Of a stretch of 64,000 nucleotides of DNA, positions 5,108 to 61,723 are shown in pieces. The stretch is from Pseudomonadota bacterium (GTDB lineage: Bacteria; Desulfobacterota; Desulfobacteria; Desulfobacterales; RPRI01). A model generated the notes under the pieces. The model saw nothing but the letters and a program-made list of their open reading frames with translations, was not told the DNA's origin and made no database searches. The position numbers and the translations under genes are program-made. The stretch's first letter is position 1. Each line of letters begins with the position of its first letter. The stretch covers positions 96,001-160,000 of the forward strand of contig JBDRRF010000076.1 of assembly GCA_043825875.1 (NCBI GenBank), given 5' to 3'.

Positions 5108-5376
5108 TTTTTTCACCTCCAAAAAATACTTGAGTTTGTAGCTGAATAAATAATATCTATCATAACCGTAAACTGATAGAGCGTTAACAACTTTTATTTA
5201 AATATTTAGGTGGAAGTCATATTGAATAGTTTCTTTTCAATACCGGAAATTTTTAAAACTATCAATATCATAGTTAAAAATATATTGGCAACGTATAATT
5301 GATATCCTTAGGAAGTTCATTGTTCAATGATGGTCTGCCTATGCAAACTACTGTTCTAAAAATTAGTATGCCGACA

Positions 5377-5519
5377 GAGCCAGTTTCAAAACGCCCCATC
5401 TCGGCCGATCTCAGCTTTGGGTAAAAATTTCTATCCTCGAAATACTCCATGTATTCCTGCGGTAAAAATTTTTTACCCGCCTTGACCTTAAACAAACTGA
5501 AACGTTTTGAACGTGGCTC
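5377..5519 (-). mobile_element. MITE-like palindromic repeat, copy 1 (inverted relative to the other copies)
   Basis: Termini GAGCCAGTTTCAAAACG and CGTTTTGAACGTGGCTC; reverse complement aligns with the copies at 20142 and 47990; flanks GACA/AACA. Confidence 0.8.
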
Positions 5520-5618
5520 AACATTTTGGGAATTAATCGGATGGATGCGATGCATATACCACAGATCAAGATTCTGAGGTATATCAGCAAAGGGTTGGCT
5601 GCGACAGAGAAAACAATT

Positions 5619-5773: not shown

Positions 5774-6661
5774 CTAAAGCAGCCCGGCCTCTTTCATTAT
5801 ATCTACAACCTTTTCTTCTTTGCCGATTGCCATTATATGAACACCATCACAAATTTTTTCTTCCTTTATCTTTCTTATCATACGCCCTGCGATTTCAATT
5901 CCTTTATTTAATGCGCCGCCTTTTGGAGCAGCAGCCATTTCATCTATAAGATCCTGCGGAACTAAAACGCCCGCAACGTTTTTATTCATAAAACGCGCCA
6001 TCGGAGCAGAAGTTAAAAGTATTATACCTGCAAGTATTTTAACCGGAAACTGGCGGGCGTACTCCATAAACTCATTGAAATTATCAAGATCATATACTGC
6101 CTGTGTCTGTATAAATTCAGCACCTGCTTCGATCTTTTTTTCAAATTTTATCAACTGCGGCTCAAGAGGTTTGGCTTCAGGTGTAACAATTGCACCTGCA
6201 CAGAAGCTCACTCCACCATCGAGTTCATTTCCTGCCATATCTTTTCCTTTTTCAAGTTTTCTTATTGCAGCCACAAGCTGGCTTGAATCAAGATCAAAAA
6301 CGCCTTTTGCTTCCTTGTGATCTCCCAGCATAACCGAATCGCCTGTAAGGCATAAAACATTGTTTATACCACGGCTGGAAGCAAACAAAAGATCAGCCTG
6401 AAGTGCCAGGCGATTGCGATCCCGGCAGGTCATCTGAAGAATTGGCTCGCCACCAAGTTCTTTTACTAAAAGAGCACCGCCTAAAGAAGGATATCGCATT
6501 ACAGAACTCTGATGATCGGTTACATTCATGGCATCCACCTTATCTTTTAGCAATTCAATATGGTGGGTCATTTTAACAAGGTTCGTACCTTTGGCCGGAG
6601 CGACTTCGCAGGTAACTACAAATTTGCCGGAATCAAGGGCTTTTTTAAATGCTGATGGCAT
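5774..6661 (-). CDS. metF: 5,10-methylenetetrahydrofolate reductase, catalytic subunit
   Basis: VTCEVAP, NVTD, MTCRDRNRLALQ, CLTGD and KKIEAGAEFIQTQ motifs. Confidence 0.93.
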   Translation of the reverse strand: MPSAFKKALDSGKFVVTCEVAPAKGTNLVKMTHHIELLKDKVDAMNVTDHQSSVMRYPSLGGALLVKELGGEPILQMTCRDRNRLALQADLLFASSRGINNVLCLTGDSVMLGDHKEAKGVFDLDSSQLVAAIRKLEKGKDMAGNELDGGVSFCAGAIVTPEAKPLEPQLIKFEKKIEAGAEFIQTQAVYDLDNFNEFMEYARQFPVKILAGIILLTSAPMARFMNKNVAGVLVPQDLIDEMAAAPKGGALNKGIEIAGRMIRKIKEEKICDGVHIMAIGKEEKVVDIMKEAGLL

Positions 6662-6697
6662 AAATTATTTCCTTTCATTATCTGAAAGTATATAACA

Positions 6698-7348
6698 TCA
6701 AACCGGAATTTGAAATTTTCCAGGACTGGGTTCACCAAGATGATTTCGTGGTTTTTTGTAAACCCGCATAACATCAAGGCGTTCTAGTTCCTTTAATCGA
6801 TTGTAAATTAAAGTCCATGCACAGTCTTTGTTGGAATCGATTTCACATTTTCCGTTATTTGTACCGCCACAAGGACCATTAACCAGTCCTTTATGACAGG
6901 CAGTTACAGGACATATTCCGCCGGTTTCTCCTATTACACATATGCCGCACTGTGTGCATACTTCATTATATTCACCGGCACCTGTTTCCTTTCCGACAAA
7001 AAGAGTATTCAATGCCGGAATGGCAATTTTATTGATCTGTCGGGCAATGGTTTGAACACCGAACGCACATGTCATAATAAGCAGCCCGTCAGCCTGTTTC
7101 AACTGAGCCTCGAATTCTCTTAAAATATCTGCCGTCAGATTGTCGCATGCCACAGGAACAACTGTGTTGCCTGTAACGACTTTACCTTTCTCCGACAAAG
7201 AATTTTTCATGGCTTCTACCTGCAATATCCCACCGGTTTGTGTAAGAGTAACGCAGGTTCCGCAGCCGATTATAAATACTCTGTTTATTCCGTAAAGAAG
7301 GCTTTCAATTTCTTCCATCGATTTTTGTTGAGTAATAGATCGGATCAT
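6698..7348 (-). CDS. metV: MTHFR small Fe-S/Zn subunit MetV
   Basis: GCGTC, CAFGVQ and CTQCGIC...ICPVTACHKGLVNGPCGG...KCE...CAW motifs; directly upstream of metF. Confidence 0.9.
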   Translation of the reverse strand: MIRSITQQKSMEEIESLLYGINRVFIIGCGTCVTLTQTGGILQVEAMKNSLSEKGKVVTGNTVVPVACDNLTADILREFEAQLKQADGLLIMTCAFGVQTIARQINKIAIPALNTLFVGKETGAGEYNEVCTQCGICVIGETGGICPVTACHKGLVNGPCGGTNNGKCEIDSNKDCAWTLIYNRLKELERLDVMRVYKKPRNHLGEPSPGKFQIPV

Positions 7349-10300
7349 ACTTCACTCTTCTCCTTTTCTAAATCGCATCTTAGACACCTTATAGCTTCAA
7401 AGCGGGCCTCTTGTTCGGAAAACCCCTTTTCAACCTCCCGAAAATCTTTGACACGATCTTCAGGTTCTTCAAACTCGATTTTAACCCTTGGCTTTGCTTC
7501 AGCAGATTCTTCCTCAAGAGCCAGGCCGGTTTCCTGGGCCAGGTCAGTTTTTTCATCCGGTATACTAATGCGTGAGCTGTCACCTGACAAATATTTATCA
7601 ATCGCCAGCGCAGCACGCCTGCCTGAAGCAATTGCCCGGATCACGTAAGTCGGTCCGGTCGTGAAATCACCGCCAGCAAAAACTCCGGGAACATTGGTTG
7701 ACAGCGTGTTTTCATCCACAACCAAACTTCCCCACAATGCTCTTTCCAACTGGCTGTCTTCGGGTAAAAAGGACATATCGGGAGCCTGTCCGATTGAAAT
7801 AATGATGTTATCGGTATCCACATACTGAGTGTCATTGATATCGCATTCCGGGCTGAACCGCCCTTCCTGATTAAACACGGAAATACACCGGGTGAAACTG
7901 ATGCCATTGACTTTACCATTCTCGTGAAAAATCCGGGTGGGCGACCAGGAAGGGTTGAGAATAATCCCCTCATCTATGGCCTCTTCAATATCTTTTTCCC
8001 ATGCCGGCATTTCATCCCGGCTTTCCAGACAGAATATTTGCACAACCTCAGAACCTAAACGAAGCGCCGTCCTCGCAACGTCAATAGCCACATTCCCTCC
8101 GCCGATAATCACTGCTTTTCCTTTCAGTGAAATATCTTTTCCGGTTCGCACGTCGCTTAAAAATGTTAACCCGTATTGCAAACCTTCAAGACCGTCTTCT
8201 TCACCCTGAACGCCGATTCGTTTACTGGCCTGTGCGCCCGAAGCTATAAATACGGCTTCAAAACCTTCTTTCATTAAGTCATTGACAGTATGATTGGCGT
8301 CAATGGGATAATTACAAAATATTTTAACACCCGCATTCTCTATATATTTGATTTCTGCTTCAATTACTTTCCGGGGCAAACGGAATTCGGGAACAGCGAT
8401 GCCCAACATCCCGCCGGGAAGTGGCTGAGCTTCATAAACAGTAGTTTCATAACCCATTTGAGCCAGAAAATAGGCGCAAGTAAGTCCAGCAGGTCCTGCG
8501 CCGATAACCGCCACTTTCTCTTCGTGGGTAACTGGAAACTGGGAACGCTCCGAACCGATATTATCAAAATACCAGTCTGCCGCAAATCGCTTGAGCGTTC
8601 GAATGGCTACCGGTTCATCAAGCTCTCCGCGCCTGCACTTGAATTCGCAGGGATGAATGCAGATTCTGCCGCATACCGCCGGAAACGGATTCTTTTCCCG
8701 GATGATATCGACCGCCTGTTGATATTTCCCACCAGCTATGGCCGCCACGTAGTTGGGCACATCAATTCCGGCCGGACAGGCATGCTGACATGCAGATATA
8801 ACCATGGAATCACAAACAGCTCCGGCGCACCGATGCTCATGAATATGATCTAAATACTCCTTTTCGAAATATTTGAGCGTCGAAAGCGCCGGTTTGGAGC
8901 AAGCCTGGCCCAGACCGCACAGGGATGCTTCTGCCATGGTTTCGCCAATAGATTTGATGGTATCAATATCTTCAATCCGACCGCGCCCCTGGGTAATCCG
9001 GGTCAGAATTTCCAGCATCTGCGTTGTGCCCAAACGACATGGGGCGCATTTGCCGCATGATTCCGATTGTGTAAAATCCAGGAAAAATCTGGCAATTTCG
9101 ACCATGCAGTTATTTTCATCCAGAACCACCATTCCGCCGGACCCCATAATGGCCCCAATCCGCTGAATCGTATCATAATCAACGGGAAGATTTAAAAACT
9201 GCGCGGAAACGCAACCACCTGCCGGTCCACCCATTTGAACGGCTTTAAATTTTCGACCCTTGGGAATGCCTCCGCCGATATCAAATACAATATCTTTAAT
9301 AGTTGCACCGATGGGAACTTCCACCAAACCGGTATTATGCACTTTTCCGGCAAGAGAAAATATTTTGGTGCCTTTGCTTTTTTCCGTACCGATTTGAGCA
9401 TACCAGGCAGCCCCGTTCTTTATAATCAAAGGGATATTTGCCCATGTTTCTACATTGTTTATATTTGTTGGTTTGGCATCCAAACCGGCCTGCGCCGGGA
9501 AGGGGGGGCGCGGCCTTGGCATTCCGCGTTTTCCTTCAATGGATGCCATGAGTGCGGTCTCCTCGCCGCAGACAAAGGCACCGGCGCCCATCTTTAATGC
9601 AAGCTGGAAATTAAAACCCGTTCCTAAGATGTTTTCTCCCAGAAGCCCCAGTTCCTTCATTTGTTCTAAAGCAATAGTCAGATGTTCAACTGCGATAGGG
9701 TATTCTTCACGTACATAAATATATCCGTACTCCGCTCCCATCGCATAAGCGCCGACAAGCATCCCCTCCATGACGGCATGGGGATCACCTTCAAGGATAG
9801 CCCGGTCCATAAATGCACCTGGATCTCCTTCATCCGCATTGCAAATCACGTACTTCGGAATACTTTTCTCCTGCCTGGCAAAGCCCCACTTGATTCCTGT
9901 GTAGAAACCGGCACCACCCCTGCCTCTTAGCTTAGATATCTTAACTTCTTCGATTACTGATTCAGGCGTCATATTGGAAAGAGCTTTAACAATCGCCTTA
10001 TATCCTCCGGCCGCAATATAATGCTCGATTTTTGTCGGATCGATCCGCCCACAATTGGCTAATACGCGCCGTTCCTGTTTCATGTAAAAGGGAATCTGCT
10101 TCTTGTAATAAATCGGCTTTAATGTCTTGGGATCACGGTAAGCCAACCGCTCAATCAACAGGTTGTTTTTTAAGGTCTGACCCACAATTTCCGCGGCATC
10201 TTGCGGGTCAACTTCCTGATATTGAATCCCTAAAGGTTCGATAGCAATCACAGGCGCCTTTGCGCAAAATCCATGACAACCGGTCGACCGGACTTCCACA

Positions 10301-10476
10301 TCGTGTGAAAGTCCCTGTTTTGCGACCTCTTCCTGTATAGCACTCAATACCTGCTCCGCACCGTATGCCCGACAGCCGGTCATACAAACATGGATCTCGG
10401 TTTTCTCCTTGGCGGTATCCTCCAGAATTTTATTGCGGAGCCATTCCAACTGGCCGATGGATGAGAGCTTCTTCAT
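7345..10476 (-). CDS. NuoF/HydB-like NADH-binding flavoprotein fused to a GltD/NfnB-like FAD oxidoreductase
   Basis: Thioredoxin-like Fe-S N-terminus (TGCHGFC), GRGGAGF, NADEGDPGAFMDR, ESCGKCAPCR; then CQHACP...CGRICIHPCEFKC, GAGPAG, GGGNVA, AGGD and a terminal RCLRC. Confidence 0.9.
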   Translation of the reverse strand: MKKLSSIGQLEWLRNKILEDTAKEKTEIHVCMTGCRAYGAEQVLSAIQEEVAKQGLSHDVEVRSTGCHGFCAKAPVIAIEPLGIQYQEVDPQDAAEIVGQTLKNNLLIERLAYRDPKTLKPIYYKKQIPFYMKQERRVLANCGRIDPTKIEHYIAAGGYKAIVKALSNMTPESVIEEVKISKLRGRGGAGFYTGIKWGFARQEKSIPKYVICNADEGDPGAFMDRAILEGDPHAVMEGMLVGAYAMGAEYGYIYVREEYPIAVEHLTIALEQMKELGLLGENILGTGFNFQLALKMGAGAFVCGEETALMASIEGKRGMPRPRPPFPAQAGLDAKPTNINNVETWANIPLIIKNGAAWYAQIGTEKSKGTKIFSLAGKVHNTGLVEVPIGATIKDIVFDIGGGIPKGRKFKAVQMGGPAGGCVSAQFLNLPVDYDTIQRIGAIMGSGGMVVLDENNCMVEIARFFLDFTQSESCGKCAPCRLGTTQMLEILTRITQGRGRIEDIDTIKSIGETMAEASLCGLGQACSKPALSTLKYFEKEYLDHIHEHRCAGAVCDSMVISACQHACPAGIDVPNYVAAIAGGKYQQAVDIIREKNPFPAVCGRICIHPCEFKCRRGELDEPVAIRTLKRFAADWYFDNIGSERSQFPVTHEEKVAVIGAGPAGLTCAYFLAQMGYETTVYEAQPLPGGMLGIAVPEFRLPRKVIEAEIKYIENAGVKIFCNYPIDANHTVNDLMKEGFEAVFIASGAQASKRIGVQGEEDGLEGLQYGLTFLSDVRTGKDISLKGKAVIIGGGNVAIDVARTALRLGSEVVQIFCLESRDEMPAWEKDIEEAIDEGIILNPSWSPTRIFHENGKVNGISFTRCISVFNQEGRFSPECDINDTQYVDTDNIIISIGQAPDMSFLPEDSQLERALWGSLVVDENTLSTNVPGVFAGGDFTTGPTYVIRAIASGRRAALAIDKYLSGDSSRISIPDEKTDLAQETGLALEEESAEAKPRVKIEFEEPEDRVKDFREVEKGFSEQEARFEAIRCLRCDLEKEKSEV

Positions 10477-10494
10477 GCTTATACGTCATCCTCC

Positions 10495-10968
10495 TTATTT
10501 TTTGCTATACTGCCCCAACACACTGGTGACTTTGGTGGGGTTTAATTTGCCAAAATAATCCCTGTTCACCATCATGGTGGGCGCCAAAAAACATGCACCA
10601 AGGCAGGCTACCGTTTCAAGGGTGAATTGATAATCAGCGCCGGTCTCACCTTCTTTCAGATTAAGTTCTTTTTGCACATGTCTGAGTATATTCCGGCTTC
10701 CCTTGACATGGCAGGCTGTCCCGCGGCAAACTCTTAGAACAAATCGTCCTTTGGGTTTTAATGAAAAACCGGAATAAAACGTAATCACACCCTGAACCTG
10801 AGTCGGGTACATATTAAGCGCTTCTGCAATAGGTTCAATGGATTCAGGAGGAACATACCCGAAGGTTTCCTGTACTTCCTGAAGTAACGGGATCAAACCC
10901 CATTTTTCATCCTGATGCTTTTCAATAATCTCTGTTAGCTTGTTCCGGTTGATCGGTTCAGGTTCCAT
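10495..10968 (-). CDS. NuoE/HydC-like [2Fe-2S] subunit
   Basis: CRGTAC...CLGAC ligand pattern. Confidence 0.9.
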   Translation of the reverse strand: MEPEPINRNKLTEIIEKHQDEKWGLIPLLQEVQETFGYVPPESIEPIAEALNMYPTQVQGVITFYSGFSLKPKGRFVLRVCRGTACHVKGSRNILRHVQKELNLKEGETGADYQFTLETVACLGACFLAPTMMVNRDYFGKLNPTKVTSVLGQYSKK

Positions 10969-11010
10969 TTTTAGTCTTACTCCTTAAAAATTTAATAGAA
11001 TAAAGGGGCC

Positions 11011-11165
11011 AAGGATTCGAGGAGTCAAGGGTTCAAGTGTTTAAAAGTTAATAATCTTGCCGGGGTTGTTATCTTTTCTTTCAACATCCCCGACACCTCT
11101 TTTTTGTTTTGAGTTGATTGTTTATATTTATTTTCCCACTTGAACCCTTGAATCCTTGAATCCTT
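11011..11165. repeat. Long intergenic inverted repeat built from 8-bp tandem units
   Basis: AAGGATTCGAGGAGTCAAGGGTTCAAGTG (11011-11039) is nearly the reverse complement of CACTTGAACCCTTGAATCCTTGAATCCTT (11137-11165). Confidence 0.75.
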
Positions 11166-11166
11166 T

Positions 11167-13839
11167 TTATAGTTTTTCTATTCTGACCTGGCAGAAATCA
11201 ACAGCACTTTTTTCCGCCTGCTTTATTTGTTCAAGATTAACAAGATTCATTACATCATTACTATTTACTGCCATTGGAATAAAAATATGCCCGGCAGGAA
11301 GAGAAGTATTTGTCTTAAATTCTCTTTCAATTGAACCGTATGCTGATTTCACTCTGATTCTTTTATCATCAACTAGCTCAAGCTTGCGACAATCGGATAC
11401 TGAAATCTCGATTTCACCCTTTTTATCATATAAACTGATTCTTTTTGAACGAGATGTTCTTGTTCCACTTCCCAAATGAAAGCGCAAAGTACCAATTCGG
11501 GCCGTTAAAGGATAATTCTCATCTTTTTGCAAAGTACTCTTTGGTGTAACAGAAGAAAATATAAATCGATTCCCGTTTCCGTTAAAAGGTGTTTTGGAAT
11601 CATTATTTTTAATCCAGTCCTGGCGATGATTTCCAAACCCTTCATACATGGGAACAACCCGCCTGATTTCCTGTCTTATTTTTTCTATTGTCTCGTATTG
11701 CTCAGGATATCCCATTTTCTTTGCCAAAAGGGAAAGAATCTGCCAATCCGCCTTTGCCTCACCCGGTGGTGATACCACTGCCGCAAATGTCTGGATACGA
11801 CCTTCCATATTGGTAAATGACCCGCTTTTTTCAGCAAATAAAGCCGCAGGAAGAATTACATCGGCAAGTTTTGCTAAGCGATTGTTTAATATGTCCTGGA
11901 CAACTATAAATTCTAATTTGCCAAGAGCAGCTTCTACCCTTTTTGGCTGGGGAAGTGCTCTTATAAGATTTTCTCCCATAATATATGCAGCTTTTAGTTG
12001 TCCGCTCTCAGCCGCTTCGATAAAGCCTGCCATGTCAAGCCCTGGTTCTAAAGGAAGTTTTACTTGCCACTTGTTTTCAAGTATTTTCCTGTTTTCATCA
12101 ATACCAAGAAAGCGTCGCCCTGGAAGAAAATCCGGAACAACACCCATATCAAAAGCACCTACCTGATTATTTTCTTCAACCGGAATATAAAAACCGCATC
12201 CTTTCTTACCAATACTTCCGGCAAGAAGACCCAGATTATACAAAGCATCAACAGTTCTCATGCCTTCCGGATTATGCAAAATATCAGGCCCGATAACAAA
12301 AGCGATATTTTTGCCTTTAATCGAATCTGCCGTTTTTTCCAAATCCTGATACTTTATCCCGTTTTGCCTTAATATCTTGTTATCATCCAATGCATTCAGG
12401 CTTTCGGCAAACGAGTCGAATCCTTCCGCATAACGGCCAACAAAATCCTTATCATAAGCTTTTTCTTTTAATATTATTTTAGATATTACATTTATCAAAT
12501 CAGCGTTTGATGCATCCAAGTGTTCAGGCGGTGAAGAACGTATCCATTGTTTGGCCAATGCAGAAAGATCGCTGCGTTCTGAATCCATAACAATCATAAA
12601 TGATCCGTTTCCGGCAGCTCTTTTGAGATGATAACCTGCAACCGGCACCGTATGATCGCAATCAACATTTACTGCAAAAATAACCTGGGCTTTTTTTAAA
12701 TCAGACAGCGGCGTAACCCGGCATGTTCCATATGTCTTTTTTTCAATATATGACAAAAGCATTTGTCCTGGTACATAACCGCCGTTTATCAGGTTAGAGG
12801 TTTGAAAAATTACACGGGCGATTTTCTGGAATAAATAATTTTCCTCATTGGAGCATTTTGATGATCCAATAAATGCGATGCTTTGCGGGCCGTGTTTTCT
12901 TTTGATTTCGGAAAGCTTTGCAGCAACAGTTTCCATTGCATTGTCCCAGGAAACTTTTACTTGCACATTTTTAAAATCTTCGTCTTTTTTTCTGATCATG
13001 GGGTGAGTGAGTCTGTCCGGCGAGTTGATATAATCGTTTGAAAAGTGACCTCTCACACAAAGAGTTACACCATTAACCGTTTGCTTATAATGCGACGGAT
13101 TAACTTCAACTATTTGCCCACCGGATACTCCTATGGTAAGAGAGCATCCTGCTCCGCAGAATCCGCAGATGGAATCATTTTCTCTTTCGGGCGTGCCTGC
13201 ATGGTGAAAGTATTTTGGCGCCAATGCGCCGGTAGGACATACGGAAACACATGTACCGCAAAATGTGCAATTGGAATTTTCTAAAAAAGTTTCATGAACC
13301 GTTGCGGGTCTTGATCTAAAACCACGGTTGTTATAGTCAATAGCTCCGGTGACTACAAGTTCGTGATCCGCACGGATGCATTTACCGCAAAGAATGCATT
13401 TGCTTAAATCCCTTGTTATGAAAGGGTTGATCTGCTCAAAGGGTTTGTAATTCGGCATTTTGTAAAGGCCATGCTCAGCCACACCTAATTTAGCTGCGAT
13501 TTTTCTAAGCTCACAGCGATTACCCTTACTACAGACAATACATGATTCAGGATGCTCTGCCATCATAAGGCGCACAATATTTCGGCGATGATTTAAAATA
13601 CGGGGGGTATCGGTTAGTATTACCATATCCTGCATTGCAGGAGTTACACATGAAGCCATTAAACGGCCGGATTTTTTATCTTCAACAAGACATATCCGGC
13701 AGGCCCCATATGGTTTAAGATCCGGATGAAAACACAGTGTGGGAATATAAATGCCATTTTGGGTTGCAGCTGTCAGGATGGTAGTTCCGGCATTACACGT
13801 AATCTTTTGATCATTGATATTGAACAAAATGTTTTCCAC
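11167..13839 (-). CDS. FdhA/NuoG-like molybdopterin-oxidoreductase-fold Fe-S subunit (apparently without the Mo/W ligand)
   Basis: N-terminal 2Fe-2S, HxxxCxxCxxxxxC, 2x[4Fe-4S] and CGFCGAGC motifs; EKSGSFTNMEGRIQ; no Cys or Sec at the usual ligand position. GTG start. Confidence 0.85.
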   Translation of the reverse strand: MENILFNINDQKITCNAGTTILTAATQNGIYIPTLCFHPDLKPYGACRICLVEDKKSGRLMASCVTPAMQDMVILTDTPRILNHRRNIVRLMMAEHPESCIVCSKGNRCELRKIAAKLGVAEHGLYKMPNYKPFEQINPFITRDLSKCILCGKCIRADHELVVTGAIDYNNRGFRSRPATVHETFLENSNCTFCGTCVSVCPTGALAPKYFHHAGTPERENDSICGFCGAGCSLTIGVSGGQIVEVNPSHYKQTVNGVTLCVRGHFSNDYINSPDRLTHPMIRKKDEDFKNVQVKVSWDNAMETVAAKLSEIKRKHGPQSIAFIGSSKCSNEENYLFQKIARVIFQTSNLINGGYVPGQMLLSYIEKKTYGTCRVTPLSDLKKAQVIFAVNVDCDHTVPVAGYHLKRAAGNGSFMIVMDSERSDLSALAKQWIRSSPPEHLDASNADLINVISKIILKEKAYDKDFVGRYAEGFDSFAESLNALDDNKILRQNGIKYQDLEKTADSIKGKNIAFVIGPDILHNPEGMRTVDALYNLGLLAGSIGKKGCGFYIPVEENNQVGAFDMGVVPDFLPGRRFLGIDENRKILENKWQVKLPLEPGLDMAGFIEAAESGQLKAAYIMGENLIRALPQPKRVEAALGKLEFIVVQDILNNRLAKLADVILPAALFAEKSGSFTNMEGRIQTFAAVVSPPGEAKADWQILSLLAKKMGYPEQYETIEKIRQEIRRVVPMYEGFGNHRQDWIKNNDSKTPFNGNGNRFIFSSVTPKSTLQKDENYPLTARIGTLRFHLGSGTRTSRSKRISLYDKKGEIEISVSDCRKLELVDDKRIRVKSAYGSIEREFKTNTSLPAGHIFIPMAVNSNDVMNLVNLEQIKQAEKSAVDFCQVRIEKL

Positions 13840-13871
13840 GATAAGCTCCTTTGGGCAAAATAAAGAAGTAT

Positions 13872-14747
13872 TTATTTTAAGCCGGCAGCATCAAAATATT
13901 TCCTCAACTTATCTTCCCCACCTATTGTAATAATATGCACGCCCTGGCAAAGCTGCTTTAAGCCTTTAATCGTATCCGAAAACAATTCTATGCTTGCTTG
14001 TTCTTTATCTGCTGCTTCGGAAAGTTTTCTTATCATCCATTCAGGCACTAATCCTGGCTTCATATGACGGTTTAAAAACTTTGCCATTCCTGCCGTACGT
14101 ATTATCAATACTTCAGCAATAACCGGGATCCCGAATGTATTCGTACGACCAAGAAATTTCTCAAAATGATCAAGATCAAATACCGGCGTAGTTAGAAAAT
14201 AACCCGTTCCAATTTGAATCATTTCTTCCATTTCTTTCATTTCAAGATCGGGAACATTTTTACCCCAAGCCGACTCCACACCTGATCCCATAAAAAATTC
14301 CGCACTGGCAGATAGTTCTTTTCCTTCTAAAGTTTGGCCCTTTCGCAGATGTTCAAGAACGGATTGCAACTTACCGGCATCCACATGGAAAAACATCATT
14401 TCATTAAGACTGTCGCCGGTAATACGGTAATCTTCAGTAAATACCAACAGATTATCTATACTGGATTCATGTGCATGCAGGAGGTCTTGTTGAAGCTGAA
14501 GTCGATCCTTATTTCTGGTAGTAGTTTGATATATGGGTTCAAAACGATTGTGTTTGAGGACATCACAAGCATTAATGCTATCAACGGCAACACCTTCAAA
14601 ATCAATCTCTGACAGTGATACGCCATCTACGCGGCCTCTGACAAGCTTCAGGCTTTCGATAAGTTCATTCGGATCCTTATCCATAGGGGACTGAAATTCA
14701 GAAGTCACAACAAAATCTTTTCGCTGAAGAGCTTCTTTAAGCTTCAT
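13872..14747 (-). CDS. Divergent MetF-like protein (second MTHFR paralogue)
   Basis: VTSEFQSP, TTTRNKDRLQLQ, GTGYFLTTPVFD and CQGVHII align with the MetF at 5774 but carry substitutions. Confidence 0.8.
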   Translation of the reverse strand: MKLKEALQRKDFVVTSEFQSPMDKDPNELIESLKLVRGRVDGVSLSEIDFEGVAVDSINACDVLKHNRFEPIYQTTTRNKDRLQLQQDLLHAHESSIDNLLVFTEDYRITGDSLNEMMFFHVDAGKLQSVLEHLRKGQTLEGKELSASAEFFMGSGVESAWGKNVPDLEMKEMEEMIQIGTGYFLTTPVFDLDHFEKFLGRTNTFGIPVIAEVLIIRTAGMAKFLNRHMKPGLVPEWMIRKLSEAADKEQASIELFSDTIKGLKQLCQGVHIITIGGEDKLRKYFDAAGLK

Positions 14748-14785: not shown

Positions 14786-15355
14786 TTACGATCCAAGCAA
14801 TCGTGCTACTTCGGTTTTTAATTGAGCAAGAGGAAAAGGTTTGGAAAAGCAGACATCGGCACCGTATTTTTTCATCTGATTAAATTTTTCTTCATCAAGA
14901 TATGCTGACAAAACTATAATTTTGGTATTTTTAGTTTCGTCATTACTCTTTATCGTTTTGCATACCTCATTTCCCTTAATATCAGGCATCATGATATCAA
15001 GAATTAAGAGATGAGGCTTAAAATGATTGACCTGGAGACCTGCCTCAAATCCGTCAGATGCAGAGATAACCTCATAGTCATTTTCATCTTCTTCCAGCGA
15101 TTGTACAATTGATTCAACAATTATGGGATCATCATCAACCACAAGAATTCTTTTGCGGGTATCTTTTGTCTCTTTTTCAGGAATCGGAATTCCTTGTTTT
15201 AGCATAAATGTTTCAAGGTCATTTATGCTGATACGGCGATGTCCTCCCGGAGTTTTATAAGCCTTGAAATATCCTGCATCGATCCAGTTTATAATGGTTT
15301 TAGATGATACTCTGCAATACTGGCCAGCTTGATATACTGTGAATATGTCATCCAT
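14786..15355 (-). CDS. Response regulator with an N-terminal excisionase-type HTH and a C-terminal receiver domain
   Basis: FTVYQAGQYCRVSSKTIINWIDAG...TPGGHRRI; ILVVDDD...LDIMMP...KP. Confidence 0.9.
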   Translation of the reverse strand: MDDIFTVYQAGQYCRVSSKTIINWIDAGYFKAYKTPGGHRRISINDLETFMLKQGIPIPEKETKDTRKRILVVDDDPIIVESIVQSLEEDENDYEVISASDGFEAGLQVNHFKPHLLILDIMMPDIKGNEVCKTIKSNDETKNTKIIVLSAYLDEEKFNQMKKYGADVCFSKPFPLAQLKTEVARLLGS

Positions 15356-15616
15356 ATCGGGACTCCTTTTTTTGCAAGATCTTTGCCCCTTGGAATACTC
15401 TGTTGAAATGGAGTGAAGAAGTTCAAATTAAAGCTTTTTGATTATTATATTAATTGCAGAATTATATCTTTGTCAAGATATATTTATAAAATAAATCATA
15501 AATATATATATTATAATGATTTATATATTAATTTTTTAACAATAAGTAACCAGCTGGATACTTACAAAGTTCCTATATTTTATTTATTATAGTTATTATA
15601 GTTTATATGGTTCATC

Positions 15617-17443
15617 TTAGTCCTGTTTTACAGGCAGTAAAATTGTAAACTCAGCTCCTTCGCCGGGGGCGCTTTTTACCTTTATATCACCGCCATGATC
15701 TTGTATAAACCCATAGCAAACGGATAACCCAAGCCCGACCCCTTTTACGCTGGGCTTTGTAGTAAAAAAACTGTCAAATATTTTATCAATATTTTCTTCC
15801 AAAATTCCGCCACCGGTATCTGTAAACCGTATGTTAACAAATCCATTTGACTCAAAAGTCTTAACTGTAAATGTACCACCATCTATCATTGCATCCTTTG
15901 CATTTGAAACCATGTTTAAAAAAACCTGACGTAACTGGTTAGTTGATGCTATTACTTTATTTATTTTATTATCGAATTCCGTCTTTATTTTTATGCTGTT
16001 TTCCTGGAATTGTTTCTCATAAAGCATCATTATTTCATCTAATATAACATTTACATCCACAGGTTTCTTTTCCTCATACTCGGGCTTTGAAAAAGACAGC
16101 ATTTTGCGAAGCATTTCTGCAAGCCGGACAATTTCTGAAAGTGACATATCCAGCAATTTTCGTCTTTTATTTTCAGGCGAAATTTCCGTTTTTAACAATT
16201 CAAGTGTATTCATAATTCCATAAAGAGGATTATTAAGCTCATGTGCTATCTGTGATGTAAGGCGTCCCATTGCCGCCAGTTTTTCCGACTGCAAGAGTTG
16301 TTCGCGTGTATCTCTTAGCGTGTGCTCCATCTCAATCCGTTCGGTAATATCAACAAATGACCCTACTGATGTAACCTCATTACCATTATCATCATAAATC
16401 ATGGCAGCAGACAAATTGCCCTCAATAGTCTTTCCATCCTTACGCACATAATGCACGGGTTGAGAACGGAACATGCCAACACCGCCATGTTCAGGGCTGC
16501 GTATCATCTTCATGATTTTATGTGCCATGCCTTCAGGATAAATTTTACTTATATTCATTTTACCTATTACTTCGCTGGCCGGATATCCAAGCATGTCTTC
16601 TGCTGCCCGATTCCAGATAATAATATTGCCCTTAATATCGGCAGCCATAATTGCATCAGGTGAATTTTGAATAATCTTGTTCATAAAATCCCGTGCTTCT
16701 TTAAGCCTTCTTTCCATCTCATACCGGTGGGATTGGTCAACAACTATTCCCTCATAGCCTACGATATTGCCATTAAGGTCATACCGGACATGGCTTGTCA
16801 TCAAAACCGGAATGGAGCTTTTATCTTTTCGCTTAAAAATTGCCGCATAATCTATAACACGCCCATCTCTTTCTATCATTTTCTGAAACTCTCGCCTATC
16901 ATCAGGGTGAGTATAAAGATCAGTAATGATATTTATTTTTAAGAATTCTTCTTTGCTTGAATATCCCAGCATATCGAGTATACCCTGATTTACATCAATA
17001 AACTTACCATCCTTTGTGCTGATATAAACACCAACTCCTACATGCTCAAACAAATTACGGTAGTCTTCAACGGATGCTTTTAATATGGCTTCATGCTGTT
17101 TACGGTAAGTAATATCCCGATAGATAAATATGCTTGAAAACGTACTATCTGAATTTTCCAATGATATTTTCTTTACCATAAAAGTTTTATCAATTTTTGG
17201 AATATAAAGCTCCTGCTGAAACTCTTCTTCGTTTAAAGTTCGGTCCTGACCTTTCACAGTGCACCATGGACAGATATCATTACTGTCATTAATTATCTTA
17301 TAACATTTTTTGCCAACACCTTTACCAAACATACGAATCATGCTCAGATTCATAAACTCTATTTTAAAATCCTGGGCAATTACATAAATTCCGTCTTCCA
17401 GATTATCAAGAATTGCATTTAACTTCTGCTTTTCGTAATCCAT
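15617..17443 (-). CDS. Cytoplasmic multi-PAS sensor histidine kinase
   Basis: Three PAS-like segments, AHELNNPL H-box, N box NAKDAM, DTGGG, FFTTK and GLGLSV; no obvious transmembrane helix. Confidence 0.92.
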   Translation of the reverse strand: MDYEKQKLNAILDNLEDGIYVIAQDFKIEFMNLSMIRMFGKGVGKKCYKIINDSNDICPWCTVKGQDRTLNEEEFQQELYIPKIDKTFMVKKISLENSDSTFSSIFIYRDITYRKQHEAILKASVEDYRNLFEHVGVGVYISTKDGKFIDVNQGILDMLGYSSKEEFLKINIITDLYTHPDDRREFQKMIERDGRVIDYAAIFKRKDKSSIPVLMTSHVRYDLNGNIVGYEGIVVDQSHRYEMERRLKEARDFMNKIIQNSPDAIMAADIKGNIIIWNRAAEDMLGYPASEVIGKMNISKIYPEGMAHKIMKMIRSPEHGGVGMFRSQPVHYVRKDGKTIEGNLSAAMIYDDNGNEVTSVGSFVDITERIEMEHTLRDTREQLLQSEKLAAMGRLTSQIAHELNNPLYGIMNTLELLKTEISPENKRRKLLDMSLSEIVRLAEMLRKMLSFSKPEYEEKKPVDVNVILDEIMMLYEKQFQENSIKIKTEFDNKINKVIASTNQLRQVFLNMVSNAKDAMIDGGTFTVKTFESNGFVNIRFTDTGGGILEENIDKIFDSFFTTKPSVKGVGLGLSVCYGFIQDHGGDIKVKSAPGEGAEFTILLPVKQD

Positions 17444-20286: not shown

Positions 20287-21336
20287 TCATATAATTTTAA
20301 TTTTTTCTTCAGGTTCCGTTGTAACTTCTCCGATCATGGCAGCTTGTGAGATCCCTTTTTCTTTCAACCGATAAAGAAGCTCTTTGGCGCTATCTGCAGC
20401 AACACAGATCAGCAAACCGCCGGATGTCTGGGGGTCAAAAAAAACATCCTGAAGTAAAATATCCACAGAAGATGAAATATCTACTATATGCTCCCGGAAC
20501 TTCCGGTTTTTATGCATTCCGGCAGGTATCATTCCCATAGCGGCATATTCTAATGCTTCTTTTAAGACCGGCACACTGTTTGCCTGAATATGAATACCTA
20601 ATCCCGAACCAATCACCATCTCAGCCATATGCCCAAGAAGTCCGAAGCCGGTAATATCCGTACAGGCATGAACCGGAAACTCCATCATAACTTCTGCCGC
20701 ATCACGGTTTAAAGTTGCCATAAGCCGGGTTACAGTATCAATAAGTTTGTCGGATGCAAGCCCACCTTTTATGGCAGTATTTATAATGCCTGTACCAAGA
20801 GGCTTTGTCAGAATCAAACGATCTTCTGCTTGTAGATTATTCTTGGTAAGCACTCGCTTGGGATGCACAAATCCCGTGACTGATAAGCCATATTTTAATT
20901 CCTTATCCTCAATACTGTGACCGCCAACAAGCACTGTACCTGCTTCCGTAAGCTTATCAAGGCCGCCCTGGATTATTTGACGCAAAACATCTATATCCAT
21001 GGTCTTGATCGGAAAGCCGACCAGGTTCATGGCTGTTTTAGGTGTTCCACCCATAGCATAAACATCACTAAGTGCATTGGCAGCAGCAATCTGACCGAAC
21101 CAGTAAGGATCATCTACAATAGGGGTAAAAAAATCCACTGTCTGGATCAACGCCAGATCATCTGAAACCCTGTAAACACCCGCATCATCTGCCCGGTCCA
21201 AGCCTACCAAAACATTTTCGTTAGTTGGAAATACCATTCCGCACAATGCTCTGTCCAGGTCCCCTGGCGCAAGTTTAGACGCTCAACCGGCACCTGCAAC
21301 TGTTTCAGTCAGCCTTAATTTCTTTATGTCTTCCAT
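20287..21336 (-). CDS. selD: Selenide, water dikinase (selenoprotein; in-frame UGA at 21283-21285)
   Basis: MEDIKKLRLTETVAGAG-UGA-ASKLAPGDL continues in frame into the ORF-track protein (DDAGV, TVDFFTP, ANALSDVYAMGG, TDITGFGL, DPQTSGGL). Confidence 0.93.
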
Positions 21337-41706: not shown

Positions 41707-41833
41707 AATTTAACCTCAACATTAAATTATTATTTCTTTCATCTGTGCAAATCAGACATTGCCATTTATGATTATTAATAAATATGAAGTGGTTGTAATT
41801 ACATAATATATAAGTAAGCCCTTGTTCGAGGCA

Positions 41834-41849
41834 TGGTATAATATTTGCT
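41834..41849 (+). promoter_or_regulatory. Sigma54 (-24/-12) promoter
   Basis: TGGTATAATATTTGCT (GG-N10-GC), about 50 bp before the start codon. Confidence 0.65.
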
Positions 41850-41896
41850 ATATTATCAACAAACATATAAAAACTATTAAAAAGGAGGATAAAAAA

Positions 41897-42649
41897 TTGA
41901 AGAAATATTTTATAGGATTGGCATCCGTATTATTAATGTTTTGTATAGTGGGGATAGCACAGGCAGATACAATTAATTTAACAGGAACAATACGTGATTT
42001 CAATTCCAGTCATCAACACTTTGAATCAAGTATTGATAATCTTGTTACGGGTTTGGTTGAAAACACCTTAGGAGCTGATAAAAATCCTGTGCGTACTACA
42101 AAGACTACAAGCTCAATGCCCGGTGATTTATCTCTATTTAACCAATGGTACAATGATGTTGCAGGGGTTAACATGGCCGACAGTCTTACCATAACCCTTG
42201 ACAATGGCGGCTCCGGCGATGTTTATTCATACAGCAATAATTCATTCTTCCCTATCGATAACCAGTTGCTTGGAAATGAAGGAAGATCTCACAACTACCA
42301 TTTTACATACGAACTTCATTCCAGCTTTACCTACCAGGGGGGCGAAATTTTCTCTTTCACAGGAGATGATGATTTATGGGTTTTTATTAATGATGAGCTT
42401 GCTGTTGACTTGGGTGGAATCCATGGTGCAGTAAGTGGAAGTGTGGCTTTGAACACATTAGGGCTAATATTAGGTAATGATTATGATTTTGATCTGTTTT
42501 TTGCTGAACGTCATACAACCCAATCAAATTTTAGCATTGAGACATCAATTCTGCTTAAAGAAACCACCGTCCCCGAACCCGCCACCATGCTGCTCTTAGG
42601 CCTTGGGATAGTTGGTTTGGCAGGGGTCAGGAGAAAGATTAAGAAGTAA
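41897..42649 (+). CDS. PEP-CTERM surface protein with a fibro-slime (PA14-like) domain
   Basis: Signal peptide; FFPID, HNYHFT.E, F.GDDDLWVFIN..LAVDLGG.H and FFAERHT..SNF; C-terminal VPEPATMLLLGLG...RRKIKK. TTG start after AGGAGG. Confidence 0.92.
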   Translation: MKKYFIGLASVLLMFCIVGIAQADTINLTGTIRDFNSSHQHFESSIDNLVTGLVENTLGADKNPVRTTKTTSSMPGDLSLFNQWYNDVAGVNMADSLTITLDNGGSGDVYSYSNNSFFPIDNQLLGNEGRSHNYHFTYELHSSFTYQGGEIFSFTGDDDLWVFINDELAVDLGGIHGAVSGSVALNTLGLILGNDYDFDLFFAERHTTQSNFSIETSILLKETTVPEPATMLLLGLGIVGLAGVRRKIKK

Positions 42650-44454: not shown

Positions 44455-45516
44455 TTATTTACTGCAAATCCGGCATCCAAGTAGGCATTGCGGGCACAAC
44501 AAGTGCAGCGAATCGCAAAACCCGACATTATATGTGCTTGTCCCGCATCCTTCACAAACTAACGGATCAATCGATTTGGTTGAAGGGTTATAGATCATGG
44601 CAAGTTTTTTTATTTTCCGGCCGATGGCTGCATTGTAGCTAATCTTAATGGATGGAGAATTAATGATCATGGCTCCGCATAATACAAGCCGTATCTTGAT
44701 GCTGTATTTTTTAAAAAGGTCATCTTTTTTTTTCTCAAGCTCAAGAGGAATTAATAGTATCTTTTCCCGTCGATCCGATTTTAACTGATCTGAAATACCC
44801 GGCCTTTTCAAGCTGTTTTCCATTTCCTGCTTTAGCCCGGTATAGTATTCATCTAAATTATCAACATCCCGTTTAAACCGTCTGTTCATGTTGCTCTGAA
44901 ATATTTTAATTTCATCGGCAAGAACAATAGGAACATTATTTTCGACCGCCTGAATCAACCTTTCAATTACGGTTTTTTCAATAACACTTTTCCTGTCCCC
45001 TGATTCATATTTTTTTTCGGTATAATAAAGAGCGTCTTCTATTCCTGCAACACAAGCTCCGGTTTCAAGATTAAAGCACAAAGACACCATGCCTTCTTTC
45101 TGTTCATCGCTTTGAGCTATATACCGACATGGAAGCACAATATAACGGGTTAATGTTTCAGCATGGTTTTCAACCGTACCTGAAGCGCCGTTAAACGAAA
45201 ATATATCCGTTATCAACTTGTCAAATCCCTGGCTTTTTATGTAATTAAAATGCAGTGAGCATTCCACCACCGGTATGGTATCACAAACATGGTTTAATAT
45301 TTTATCAAGAAACGCTGAGCCGTATGCAACGGAAAATTCTCCCTGGGCATCTTCTCCGGTTTGAACTTTAAAATGATCGGGAGTATTTAGTTGCTCCGCC
45401 AATGCTTCAGGAATAAGTACTTCCATCTGATTTGCATGACTTTCCGTTGCTACACCATAAATCCGAAAAAATTTATTTGCAAAATCTGTGAGCGTTTGGT
45501 CAGAGTTAGAGTTCAT
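44455..45516 (-). CDS. YqhG-like protein with a C-terminal Cys/His zinc finger
   Basis: SDEQKEG, coiled-coil middle and CEGC...CDSLHLLCPQC...CRIC; overlaps the SNF2 stop. Confidence 0.65.
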   Translation of the reverse strand: MNSNSDQTLTDFANKFFRIYGVATESHANQMEVLIPEALAEQLNTPDHFKVQTGEDAQGEFSVAYGSAFLDKILNHVCDTIPVVECSLHFNYIKSQGFDKLITDIFSFNGASGTVENHAETLTRYIVLPCRYIAQSDEQKEGMVSLCFNLETGACVAGIEDALYYTEKKYESGDRKSVIEKTVIERLIQAVENNVPIVLADEIKIFQSNMNRRFKRDVDNLDEYYTGLKQEMENSLKRPGISDQLKSDRREKILLIPLELEKKKDDLFKKYSIKIRLVLCGAMIINSPSIKISYNAAIGRKIKKLAMIYNPSTKSIDPLVCEGCGTSTYNVGFCDSLHLLCPQCLLGCRICSK

Positions 45517-59362: not shown

Positions 59363-60244
59363 TTATACCTCAAGCCATGAATCCGAGTACAGAGTCTTGC
59401 CAAGAATTACATTAGTAGTCTTGACATAATCCTGCATTTCTTTTGAAAGACTTGCCATATCCGGCTCATTGCCATCCATGGTTGCATAGATCAGGTCAAT
59501 AATATCCTGACGTTTGCCTTTTGCAATTTCAGTCAGTTGCAAGTCAAGAGGATCCGAAATAACCGAATACATACCTTTTCTTCCAAGCATAACCATGTAT
59601 GTCTGATTCAGAATAGGACGCAGATGAACCGGCGGTCCATTTGAAATATTTGACAAACCACATGTGCTCTTTGCACCTGGAGCTATATCTTCGATCATTG
59701 CCTGAAACTCCATAAGGCTGATAAGCTGAGGCTGCTGGATATTAACAGGTGTTACTATGCCATCTACCCAGATTTTTTCATTCGGAATACCTGCTTCATT
59801 TGCAGCATATAAAAGTTCTACACAAAGTGCGGCGCGTTCATTCTCATCACGAGGAAGACCGTCAGGTCCCCACATGAGCGCTATAAAATCCGCATTATAC
59901 TCTGCTGCAAGAGGAATCATTTTCTCATATCTCTCAGGACGGCACATGATGGAATTGATAAGAGGCGGAAGTTTACAAACTTTTAAAGCCGCTTCAATTG
60001 CGCCTATGTTTGATGTATCTAAGACCAGAGGAACATCACTTACTACTTCCTGAACCACTTCAACAACCCATGGCATAAGTTCATGACCGTCTTTTTTTGC
60101 CGGCCCAAGATTTATATCGATATAATCCATACCCTTTTCTTTTTGAAAAAGAGCCTCTTCCTGGATCGGTTTCGGATCGCGTTCTTTGAAGGCCTTCCCG
60201 ATCTTTTTTGAAATAACATTTAAGCTTTCACCAATAAGTAACAT
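59363..60244 (-). CDS. acsE: Methyltetrahydrofolate:corrinoid Fe-S protein methyltransferase
   Basis: IGESLN, IDIN.G, LDTSN, INS and GLSNISNG pterin-binding TIM-barrel motifs; lies in the acs cluster. Confidence 0.9.
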   Translation of the reverse strand: MLLIGESLNVISKKIGKAFKERDPKPIQEEALFQKEKGMDYIDINLGPAKKDGHELMPWVVEVVQEVVSDVPLVLDTSNIGAIEAALKVCKLPPLINSIMCRPERYEKMIPLAAEYNADFIALMWGPDGLPRDENERAALCVELLYAANEAGIPNEKIWVDGIVTPVNIQQPQLISLMEFQAMIEDIAPGAKSTCGLSNISNGPPVHLRPILNQTYMVMLGRKGMYSVISDPLDLQLTEIAKGKRQDIIDLIYATMDGNEPDMASLSKEMQDYVKTTNVILGKTLYSDSWLEV

Positions 60245-60326
60245 ACGACCTCCCCGTTTATTTGCTAACGGTTGTTAATGGCAGCGGTTCTCCTGTTTGC
60301 AAAAGAAAACCGCCACCTTCTTATTA

Positions 60327-61667: not shown

Positions 61668-61723
61668 TTTTATCTCCTTATTTAATTAAAATACAAAAAA
61701 TTCTTATTTGCCGACTTTTTCAA

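Follow-up and report, generated by a model that had tools for sequence, protein, structure and literature searches.

Introduction

How the methylene-/methyl-tetrahydrofolate (THF) step is coupled in anaerobes is a long-standing question of the Wood-Ljungdahl pathway, chiefly for the oxidative direction of sulfate reducers. The MetVF-type methylene-THF reductases (MTHFRs) include the two-subunit enzyme of C. ljungdahlii, the RnfC2-containing enzyme of A. woodii and the HdrABC-MvhD-containing enzymes of Moorella and Sporomusa. A further arrangement, in which homologues of NuoEFG are encoded upstream of metFV, was named 'X type' (group III) by Yi et al. (2021; PMC8515935), whose account of it describes an unstudied enzyme, a hypothetical MetFV-NuoEFG pentamer of Dethiosulfatarculus sandiegensis, widespread in Desulfobacterales and speculated, by analogy with Hyt, to bifurcate electrons. 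It is the single MetVF class without biochemistry. Here we analyse a cluster of this kind in a 64,000-nucleotide stretch of DNA (positions 96,001 to 160,000, forward strand, of contig JBDRRF010000076.1, assembly GCA_043825875.1; hereafter the window) from a bacterium of the Desulfobacterales, in which two of the genes, nuoE and a nuoF::gltD fusion, have been replaced by a foreign copy and in which the electron-input module has no ferredoxin-type domain.

Such a domain, with clusters B3/B4, is part of the BfuB subunit by which Schut et al. (2022; PMC9304861) define the bifurcating Bfu family. In 'sub-type I' BfuB, as described by Zheng and Huang (2024; PMC11406978), B3/B4 are replaced by DPD_II and a FAD/NAD(P) domain. 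Structural and biochemical details have been given for StnABC and Nfn-Bfu (NfnABC) (PDB 8oh5, 9bov and 9n5u; PMC7483475, PMC10482914, PMC12018979, PMC11829005); in StnABC, the NuoG subunit carries an inserted GltD module that supplies the mid-potential branch, and ferredoxin is reduced by B3/B4. According to PMC12018979, B3/B4 are required for ferredoxin reduction, removal of B4 nearly abolishes bifurcation by NfnABC, and the C1 cluster cannot reduce ferredoxin directly.

Results and Discussion

A conserved five-gene unit

As a preliminary description of the window, made from the sequence, had stated, six open reading frames (ORFs) lie on one strand with mostly short gaps, with a 4-bp overlap between the fusion gene and metV. 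The ORF list bears this out, and the identities of all six were confirmed by Pfam/NCBIfam:

13872-14747, minus strand: metF2, divergent MetF-fold protein, 291 aa (Pfam, residue alignment and model)
11167-13839, minus strand: NuoG/FdhA-like subunit, 890 aa, five Fe-S clusters, molybdenum (Mo) site lost (Pfam)
11005-11166, no strand: intergenic inverted repeat between nuoG and nuoE, REP-like, 25 genome matches per arm
10495-10968, minus strand: NuoE/HydC-like subunit, 157 aa, mobile C1 [2Fe-2S] cluster (Pfam 2Fe-2S_thioredx)
7345-10476, minus strand: NuoF/HydB::GltD fusion, 1043 aa (Pfam and ligand alignment)
6698-7348, minus strand: metV, Fe-S subunit, 216 aa (Pfam PF12225)
5774-6661, minus strand: metF, catalytic subunit of MetVF methylene-THF reductase, 295 aa (Pfam MTHFR, E 7e-41)

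Read from metF2 to metF, the intergenic distances are 32, 198, 18, -4 (overlap) and 36 bp, and eight putative terminators lie inside the cluster vs. 11.5 expected. The nuoEFG homologues directly upstream of metV-metF form the five-gene core that is also characteristic of the X type.

For synteny, the divergent MetF (MetF2) served as bait against species-representative genomes; from 117 confirmed relatives the best 80 were taken (66-90% identity, mostly Desulfobacterales or Deltaproteobacteria), a set that, being chosen by metF2, is unable to reveal operons lacking this gene. Of the 38 loci that extend at least 8.2 kb downstream, 36 keep the six-gene order, which is therefore not a product of chance. 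The NuoG-like gene comes next after metF2 in 73/76 loci, and the contact of metV with the fusion gene, by a 4-bp overlap or nearly so, is maintained across families. The three exceptions (L058, L090 and L093) have the response regulator gene described below and metF2 without Nuo-like genes behind them; HdrA is present in all three, and L058 and L093 additionally carry a metV-metF pair from another clade. Among 83 loci, no methyltransferase or other metabolic gene recurred as a neighbour.

The proposal of a six-gene complex, on the other hand, is not supported. With a second bait, independent of metF2, 12 metV-linked fusions were obtained, five with metF2 directly upstream and one with it downstream, while no metF2 was present within the 1.2-1.9 kb fetched at the remaining six. 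In G016, one of the closest relatives of the window's genome, a deletion (L024:8679-9152) has collapsed the regulator gene and metF2 to a remnant and left the five enzyme genes intact. Since metF2 is so often not seen beside metV-linked fusions and G016 keeps the other five genes, the enzyme unit, judged by gene content, consists of nuoG-like, nuoE, nuoF::gltD, metV and metF. An obligatory sixth subunit MetF2 is disfavoured both by the six fusions beside which it was not seen and by its association with the regulator, which survives a change of redox partner. The cluster is real and conserved, and represents an uncharacterised variant within an enzyme type that has so far been proposed. It had been suggested to be a distinct module, but its arrangement already carries the name X type (PMC8515935) and its fusion architecture has been described (PMC11406978).

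A Bfu-type core without B3/B4

The fusion comprises the Pfam domains 2Fe-2S_thioredx (residues 21-99), Complex1_51K (178-349), SLBB (373-418), NADH_4Fe-4S (460-544), Fer4_20 (549-638) and Pyr_redox_2 (654-952), in agreement with the earlier reading that, within a conserved MetVF-linked module, the GltD/NfnB part is joined to NuoF and not to the NuoG-like subunit. The NuoF half is nearest to HydB subunits of bifurcating enzymes and retains, in 48 of 48 orthologues, B5, the FMN/NAD site (AFM 221-223, Glu306), the B1 cluster and the B2 site, the latter with its conserved histidine as in the Bfu definition (C457, T495, H544, C550 and C555, each 48/48). Glu306 matches by offset a residue to which selection of NADH rather than NADPH is ascribed (PMC12018979). 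The four cysteines of the NuoE-like subunit are invariant in 56/56 rows and the cysteines of five clusters of the NuoG-like subunit in 60/60, so that the Bfu elements present are BfuB with FMN domain, SLBB and B1, BfuC with C1 and BfuA with A1/A2. The fusion shares FMN, SLBB, B1 and B2 with the Bfu family, but past residue 555 it has neither a Pfam domain nor motifs of the ferredoxin-type B3/B4 domain (IPR017896). The GltD domain begins eight residues after Cys555, the last B2 ligand, where B3/B4 of HydB begin.

This GltD domain, with two clusters and FAD, is closest to NfnA/StnC. Its cluster ligand Lys629 is found in 48/48 sequences, not Glu as in bifurcating NfnB/NfnL, the ligands of its first cluster are made up by a C-terminal RCLRC, as in StnC, and the FAD-proximal Arg699 is invariant. 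A lysine-ligated cluster is described as the StnC/NfnA type, standing beside a non-bifurcating FAD site (PMC12018979, PMC10482914), and StnC has the same FAD-proximal Arg yet does not bifurcate there (PMC10482914). NfnAB (NfnSL; PDB 4ylf, 5jca) resembles the domain in GltD fold, FAD, two clusters and flavin-proximal Arg, but has Glu for Lys; an FAD of the bifurcating NfnB type is ruled out by this exchange. No gene for an NfnA/NfnS partner was present among the window ORFs or the conserved neighbours.

In the NuoG-like subunit, the Mo-ligand Cys and the following His are lost, with NGGY replacing TCARVCH, and no Mo/W-ligating Cys or selenocysteine with its His occurs in the 60 rows or at the metV-linked NuoG sites that were read; an active formate dehydrogenase (FDH) is ruled out by the loss of these ligands. 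The 890-aa protein has no FAD domain and aligns with StnC only beyond the GltD insert of the latter. Its residues suggest an electron wire and scaffold that is catalytically dead.

With StnABC and Nfn-Bfu, the cluster has in common the three building blocks, a Lys-ligated cluster by the FAD, an inactive FdhF-like domain and a B2 site with Thr. Membership in Stn is ruled out, however, as GltD stands outside the NuoG-like subunit, in the place of the missing B3/B4. A further difference is that the window GltD lacks the nucleotide-site motif YRR. The preliminary description had seen a Stn-like transhydrogenase with ferredoxin coupling; the absence of B3/B4 and, in the window GltD, of the arginines seen in all five solved NADPH relatives displayed speaks against this, and despite the resemblance the module probably does not act as such a transhydrogenase. 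Closer in architecture is sub-type I BfuB, in which NuoF/HydB ends in DPD_II and a FAD/NAD(P) domain, although that was reported with [FeFe]-hydrogenase A subunits, whereas the present cluster has a dead FDH-like protein as A subunit and MetVF as partner. The passages of PMC8515935 that describe the X type make no mention of a GltD fusion, of missing B3/B4 or Mo sites, of metF2 and the regulator, or of a nucleotide site in two forms.

Two forms of the GltD nucleotide site

In five of five solved NADPH-type relatives displayed, YRR follows the second Rossmann strand. The window GltD has CLE (816-818) in this position, and the arginines are gone while GGGNVA is kept. Among 48 close orthologues, 34 are CLE (one of them SLE) and 14 YRR, and in CLE copies a second arginine loop (GRRRP) disappears together with YRR. 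In the glutathione-reductase fold, such arginines bind the 2'-phosphate, and their loss would point to a preference for NADH. The window copy is therefore likely, by its motif, to use NADH rather than NADPH at the GltD site.

A phylum-wide search, in which 106 of 301 genomes passed E 1e-230, some through the NuoF half alone, listed about 110 places spanning both halves, and 60 of these were fetched by hand in rank order. The genes beside these 60 fusions are intact FDH (15), HoxYH (9), other genes (24) and metV (12). All 48 fusions not adjoining metV are YRR, while CLE occurs in 3 of the 12 adjoining it and, among near relatives, in 0/6 hydrogenase-linked fusions. Where the fusion stands beside HoxYH NiFe hydrogenases and mostly selenocysteine FDHs (L027:8006-16531 and L121-L180), it has the YRR form throughout this sample. 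With FastTree, the motif label requires at least two changes on a GltD tree from which the motif columns were removed and at least five on the NuoF tree; because of this difference, the two halves of the fusion appear to have recombined, or the site to have switched repeatedly.

The existence of the GltD site in two forms, with CLE seen only beside metV and exchanged in a natural allele swap, is new here; neither a characterised complex nor the CLE form came up in the literature search beyond the works cited, with subscription journals and bioRxiv supplements outside its coverage. To the X type, our analysis adds the departure from the Bfu and Stn definitions, the MetVF-restricted CLE form with its natural swap and a regulatory reading of metF2.

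Natural replacement of nuoE and nuoF::gltD

The window is CLE, and its three closest relatives, G008, G011 and G016, are YRR. The difference coincides with an exchanged segment:

7349-10950 (ends approximate), minus strand: replaced cassette, nuoE + nuoF::gltD (identity to G008, GC content at third codon positions, trees)

In 300-bp windows, nucleotide identity to G008 is 61-78% within this segment (~10950-7349) and 85-99% outside it, whereas G008 and G011 are 79-89% identical to each other inside the same region. GC content at third codon positions is 0.44-0.47 inside the cassette and 0.30-0.34 outside. The exchanged nuoE and fusion are ~26-30% different, and metV stayed. Trees and approximately unbiased (AU) tests were made on 20 of the 36 complete gene sets, with test groups picked after the identities had been seen. 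In the flank tree, the window is sister to G008 and its grouping with the CLE clade is rejected (AU p 1e-4); in the cassette tree, it groups with that CLE clade and its grouping with the congeners is rejected (AU p 0.003).

Re-assembled contigs of sequencing run X1 span both cassette junctions with zero differences and flat depth, which rules out an assembly chimera as the origin of the mosaic; run X1 may be the source data of the assembly, and the junction test is a check of the assembly only. In run X2, a relative's contig agrees up to 7349 and diverges beyond. The inverted repeat at 11005-11166 is common to the window, G008 and G011 and is thus older than the swap. The replacement of nuoE-nuoF::gltD by a foreign copy is real and gene-precise. 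It offers a matched natural pair, the window CLE cassette and the G008 YRR cassette with neighbouring subunits 92-99% identical, for direct comparison of cofactor use and coupling.

Proposed electron path and energetics

We tentatively favour, at close to even chances, a ferredoxin-independent, NAD(P)H-linked methylene-THF reductase, which in the window would likely take NADH at both flavins. From their sequences, the five genes likely encode one soluble methylene-THF reductase complex. A first hydride would enter at FMN, where the NAD site is intact, and a second at the GltD FAD, whose electrons the two GltD clusters would hand on to the mobile C1 cluster in NuoE; the GltD arm would stand where reduced ferredoxin and B3/B4 act in Bfu enzymes. 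The exit route would run via B1 and the clusters of NuoG to MetV and on to the flavin of MetF. MetVF would then be the 'third substrate' enzyme, a position held by FDH or NiFe hydrogenase in sister operons; as the A subunit is dead here and MetVF comes next, MetVF most simply fills this place. The MetVF pair itself looks complete: the 12 cysteines of MetV are invariant in 44/44 rows, and MetF, aligned to the T. thermophilus MTHFR, retains Glu19, Asp108 and Gln187, the counterparts of E. coli Glu28, Asp120 and Gln183, conserved in 39 rows (roles of the catalytic residues according to PMC11094777).

Energies were computed with -200 mV for methylene-THF and otherwise with the physiological potentials listed in Table 1 of PMC9304861. 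The reaction of 2 NADH with 2 methylene-THF yields about -31 kJ and that of NADH + NADPH with 2 methylene-THF -50 kJ, and the favoured direction would be methyl-THF formation. At -200 mV, methylene-THF is an electron sink of high potential, so that NADH suffices for the second arm, which would explain why the arginine-less form is found beside metV only. As the known Bfu ferredoxin outlet is unusable by the module, the X type becomes open to a sharper test, and with the same fusion in FDH and hydrogenase operons across the phylum, the answer would reach beyond this cluster.

Several points weigh against this assignment. The NuoF half keeps every other bifurcation-type feature (ADEG, AFM, B2 His, B5), which would be superfluous for a plain NADH wire, the GltD clusters could, by analogy with NfnB, bind ferredoxin, and a machine of two flavins and about ten clusters that conserves no energy is costly. 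CLE may have arisen only twice, and the 3/12 and 0/48 do not come from independent samples, so that no statistical weight is claimed for them. Glu818 of CLE lies off the classical acidic position, and the papers searched for a passage tying loss of such arginines to NADH, PMC12018979 and PMC10482914 among them, gave none.

An unlikely alternative is ferredoxin-free NADH/NADP bifurcation, in which FMN would split 2 NADH, with an uphill branch over C1/GltD to NADP+ and a downhill branch over NuoG to methylene-THF or, in reverse, NADPH would pay for methyl-THF oxidation by NAD+. The reaction is near equilibrium, about 4 kJ either way (+4 kJ for 2 NADH to methylene-THF and NADP+), compared with +15 kJ for methyl-THF to NAD+ alone; FMN sits between B1 and C1, the arrangement of bifurcating Bfu cores, every ligand is kept, and the scheme suits the YRR alleles (14/48). 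The window and most close orthologues, however, are without both arginine patches, and with NAD at both sites the reaction collapses; moreover, the scheme inverts the usual branch roles of Bfu enzymes, and no example of this was found.

Ferredoxin-coupled bifurcation, as assumed in the preliminary description and by Yi et al., seems similarly improbable. Reduced ferredoxin on the GltD or NuoG clusters would drive methyl-THF oxidation, with FAD or FMN as the splitting site. At about -27 kJ for methyl-THF + reduced ferredoxin to 2 NAD+, the thermodynamics would suit a sulfate reducer that oxidises acetyl-CoA; NAD is the nucleotide with which the scheme works best, and this would likewise explain CLE. 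The invariant Arg699 next to the FAD fits such a scheme, and a second bifurcating FAD was raised for this kind of fusion by Zheng and Huang (PMC11406978). Against it stand the loss of B3/B4, with a C1 that alone cannot reduce ferredoxin, the Lys ligand in place of the Glu of bifurcating NfnB/NfnL, the StnC precedent of the same Arg without bifurcation, and the 20 of 27 AcsB-bearing genomes that have no MetV of the cluster's type.

The least probable option is that of separate, co-regulated enzymes, MetVF acting alone in the manner of the ferredoxin-dependent two-subunit enzyme and the Nuo-like trimer as a free diaphorase or transhydrogenase: Sporomusa stnABC lies directly 3' of metVF and was yet purified separately (PMC7483475), and here the nuoE-fusion exchange left metV unchanged, but a trimer without MetVF would have no third substrate, with NuoG dead and CLE copies serving one nucleotide at both flavins, and the near-contact with metV is kept across families.

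An accessory isoenzyme

Of 31 related genomes, 7 have the cluster's MetV type (at least 70% identity), 29 have a MetV of any type and 27 have AcsB, and all seven genomes with this MetV type also hold AcsB and another MetV. Besides the cluster, three metV-metF pairs and other MetF-like genes are present in the window's genome, with HdrA-like/MvhD-linked and other pairs on contigs C8 and C41. Based on these counts, the cluster is an accessory isoenzyme and not the only Wood-Ljungdahl reductase.

Some of the other loci are unusual in themselves. On contig C41 (L115:127-7552), two genes for glutamate-synthase FMN domains stand directly behind a metV-metF pair and may represent another type of MetVF partner. 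Two StnC-like genes, with GltD in a NuoG/FdhA-like protein and YRR, are each present as two ORFs (L114:11803-17627, L118:8597-12721), and one of them converges on a metV-metF pair. Contig C31 encodes a 517-aa protein with an N-terminal MetF and a C-terminal MetV-like cysteine segment (L117:6566-8116).

MetF2 and the regulatory genes

Two genes overlooked in the preliminary description lie upstream of metF2, the first of which is a conserved seventh gene of the cluster:

14786-15355, minus strand: response regulator, HTH_17 + receiver, directly upstream of metF2 (Pfam)
15443-15478, minus strand: promoter region, TTGACA then 9-bp direct repeats, conserved across upstream regions
15617-17443, minus strand: histidine kinase, soluble, with three PAS domains (Pfam)

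In all 70 loci with room for it, the regulator gene immediately precedes metF2, and a kinase lies upstream in 34/52 with room. MetF2 retains Glu17 and Asp106, but Thr replaces the catalytic Gln in all 28 rows aligned, the Gly of LTGD has become Glu105, and two lysines are exchanged for Glu/Met, positions that we take to be flavin contacts. As it travels with a response regulator, MetF2 looks regulatory, and its residues make a flavin-free, regulatory protein likely. A flavin-independent reductase of the mycobacterial type is conceivable, given the retained Glu and Asp, although the fold matches listed for the model (a confident barrel, pLDDT 86) are flavin-dependent MTHFRs, the best at 12-19% identity, and the Atlas gave MTHFR clusters only. 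A second degenerate MetF-like gene, with SGEE for LTGD and no Gln, lies on contig C8 (L113:17111-17971) among two-component genes and near an HdrA-like/MvhD/metV/metF operon; 17 of 31 genomes hold relatives of it that pass E 1e-60. Going by these two cases, a MetF-like protein next to a regulator may be a recurring theme.

Upstream of the regulator gene, a TTGACA-type element (pattern with two variant letters) is present in 64 of 65 regions, and 9-bp direct repeats with the consensus CTATAATAA gave 134 matches in the 65 regions vs. a mean of 16 (maximum 25) in 100 shuffles, the regions being related and non-independent. A spacing of 9 predominates, and the window copy is degenerate. The repeats are a candidate operator of the regulator; BldC, a MerR-like protein, is said to bind direct repeats. 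When the genome was scanned with the promoter profile, the top match was the window itself (30.6), the next scoring 23.9 and below. The cluster is likely, to judge from its gene neighbourhood, switched by kinase, regulator and MetF-like protein.

It is conceivable, though doubtful as a whole, that a Bfu-type core has been rewired to work without ferredoxin, with NAD(P)H as the low-potential partner via the GltD arm, that YRR forms couple methyl-THF oxidation to NADPH near equilibrium while CLE forms use NADH alone, that lineages toggle between the two by cassette swap, and that a flavin-free MetF paralogue senses one-carbon folates and controls the operon through a direct-repeat-binding regulator.

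Other features of the window

The acs genes, which had been placed about 45 kb away, were located there:

59363-63937: acsE/acsC/acsB (Pfam/NCBIfam identification)

Just 3' of metF, a ~150-bp element (5371-5525) has 278 BLAST matches in the genome, 247 of them over 120 bp, and gives rise to a spurious 93-aa ORF. At 45506-47842, an SNF2-like helicase shows weak, sub-cut-off similarity to DISARM DrmD, and a fibro-slime domain gene lies at 41822-42649. The selD gene (20287-21330), with yedF next to it, has an in-frame TGA just 5' of the called start (context GAG*ASKL) and probably encodes a selenocysteine form.

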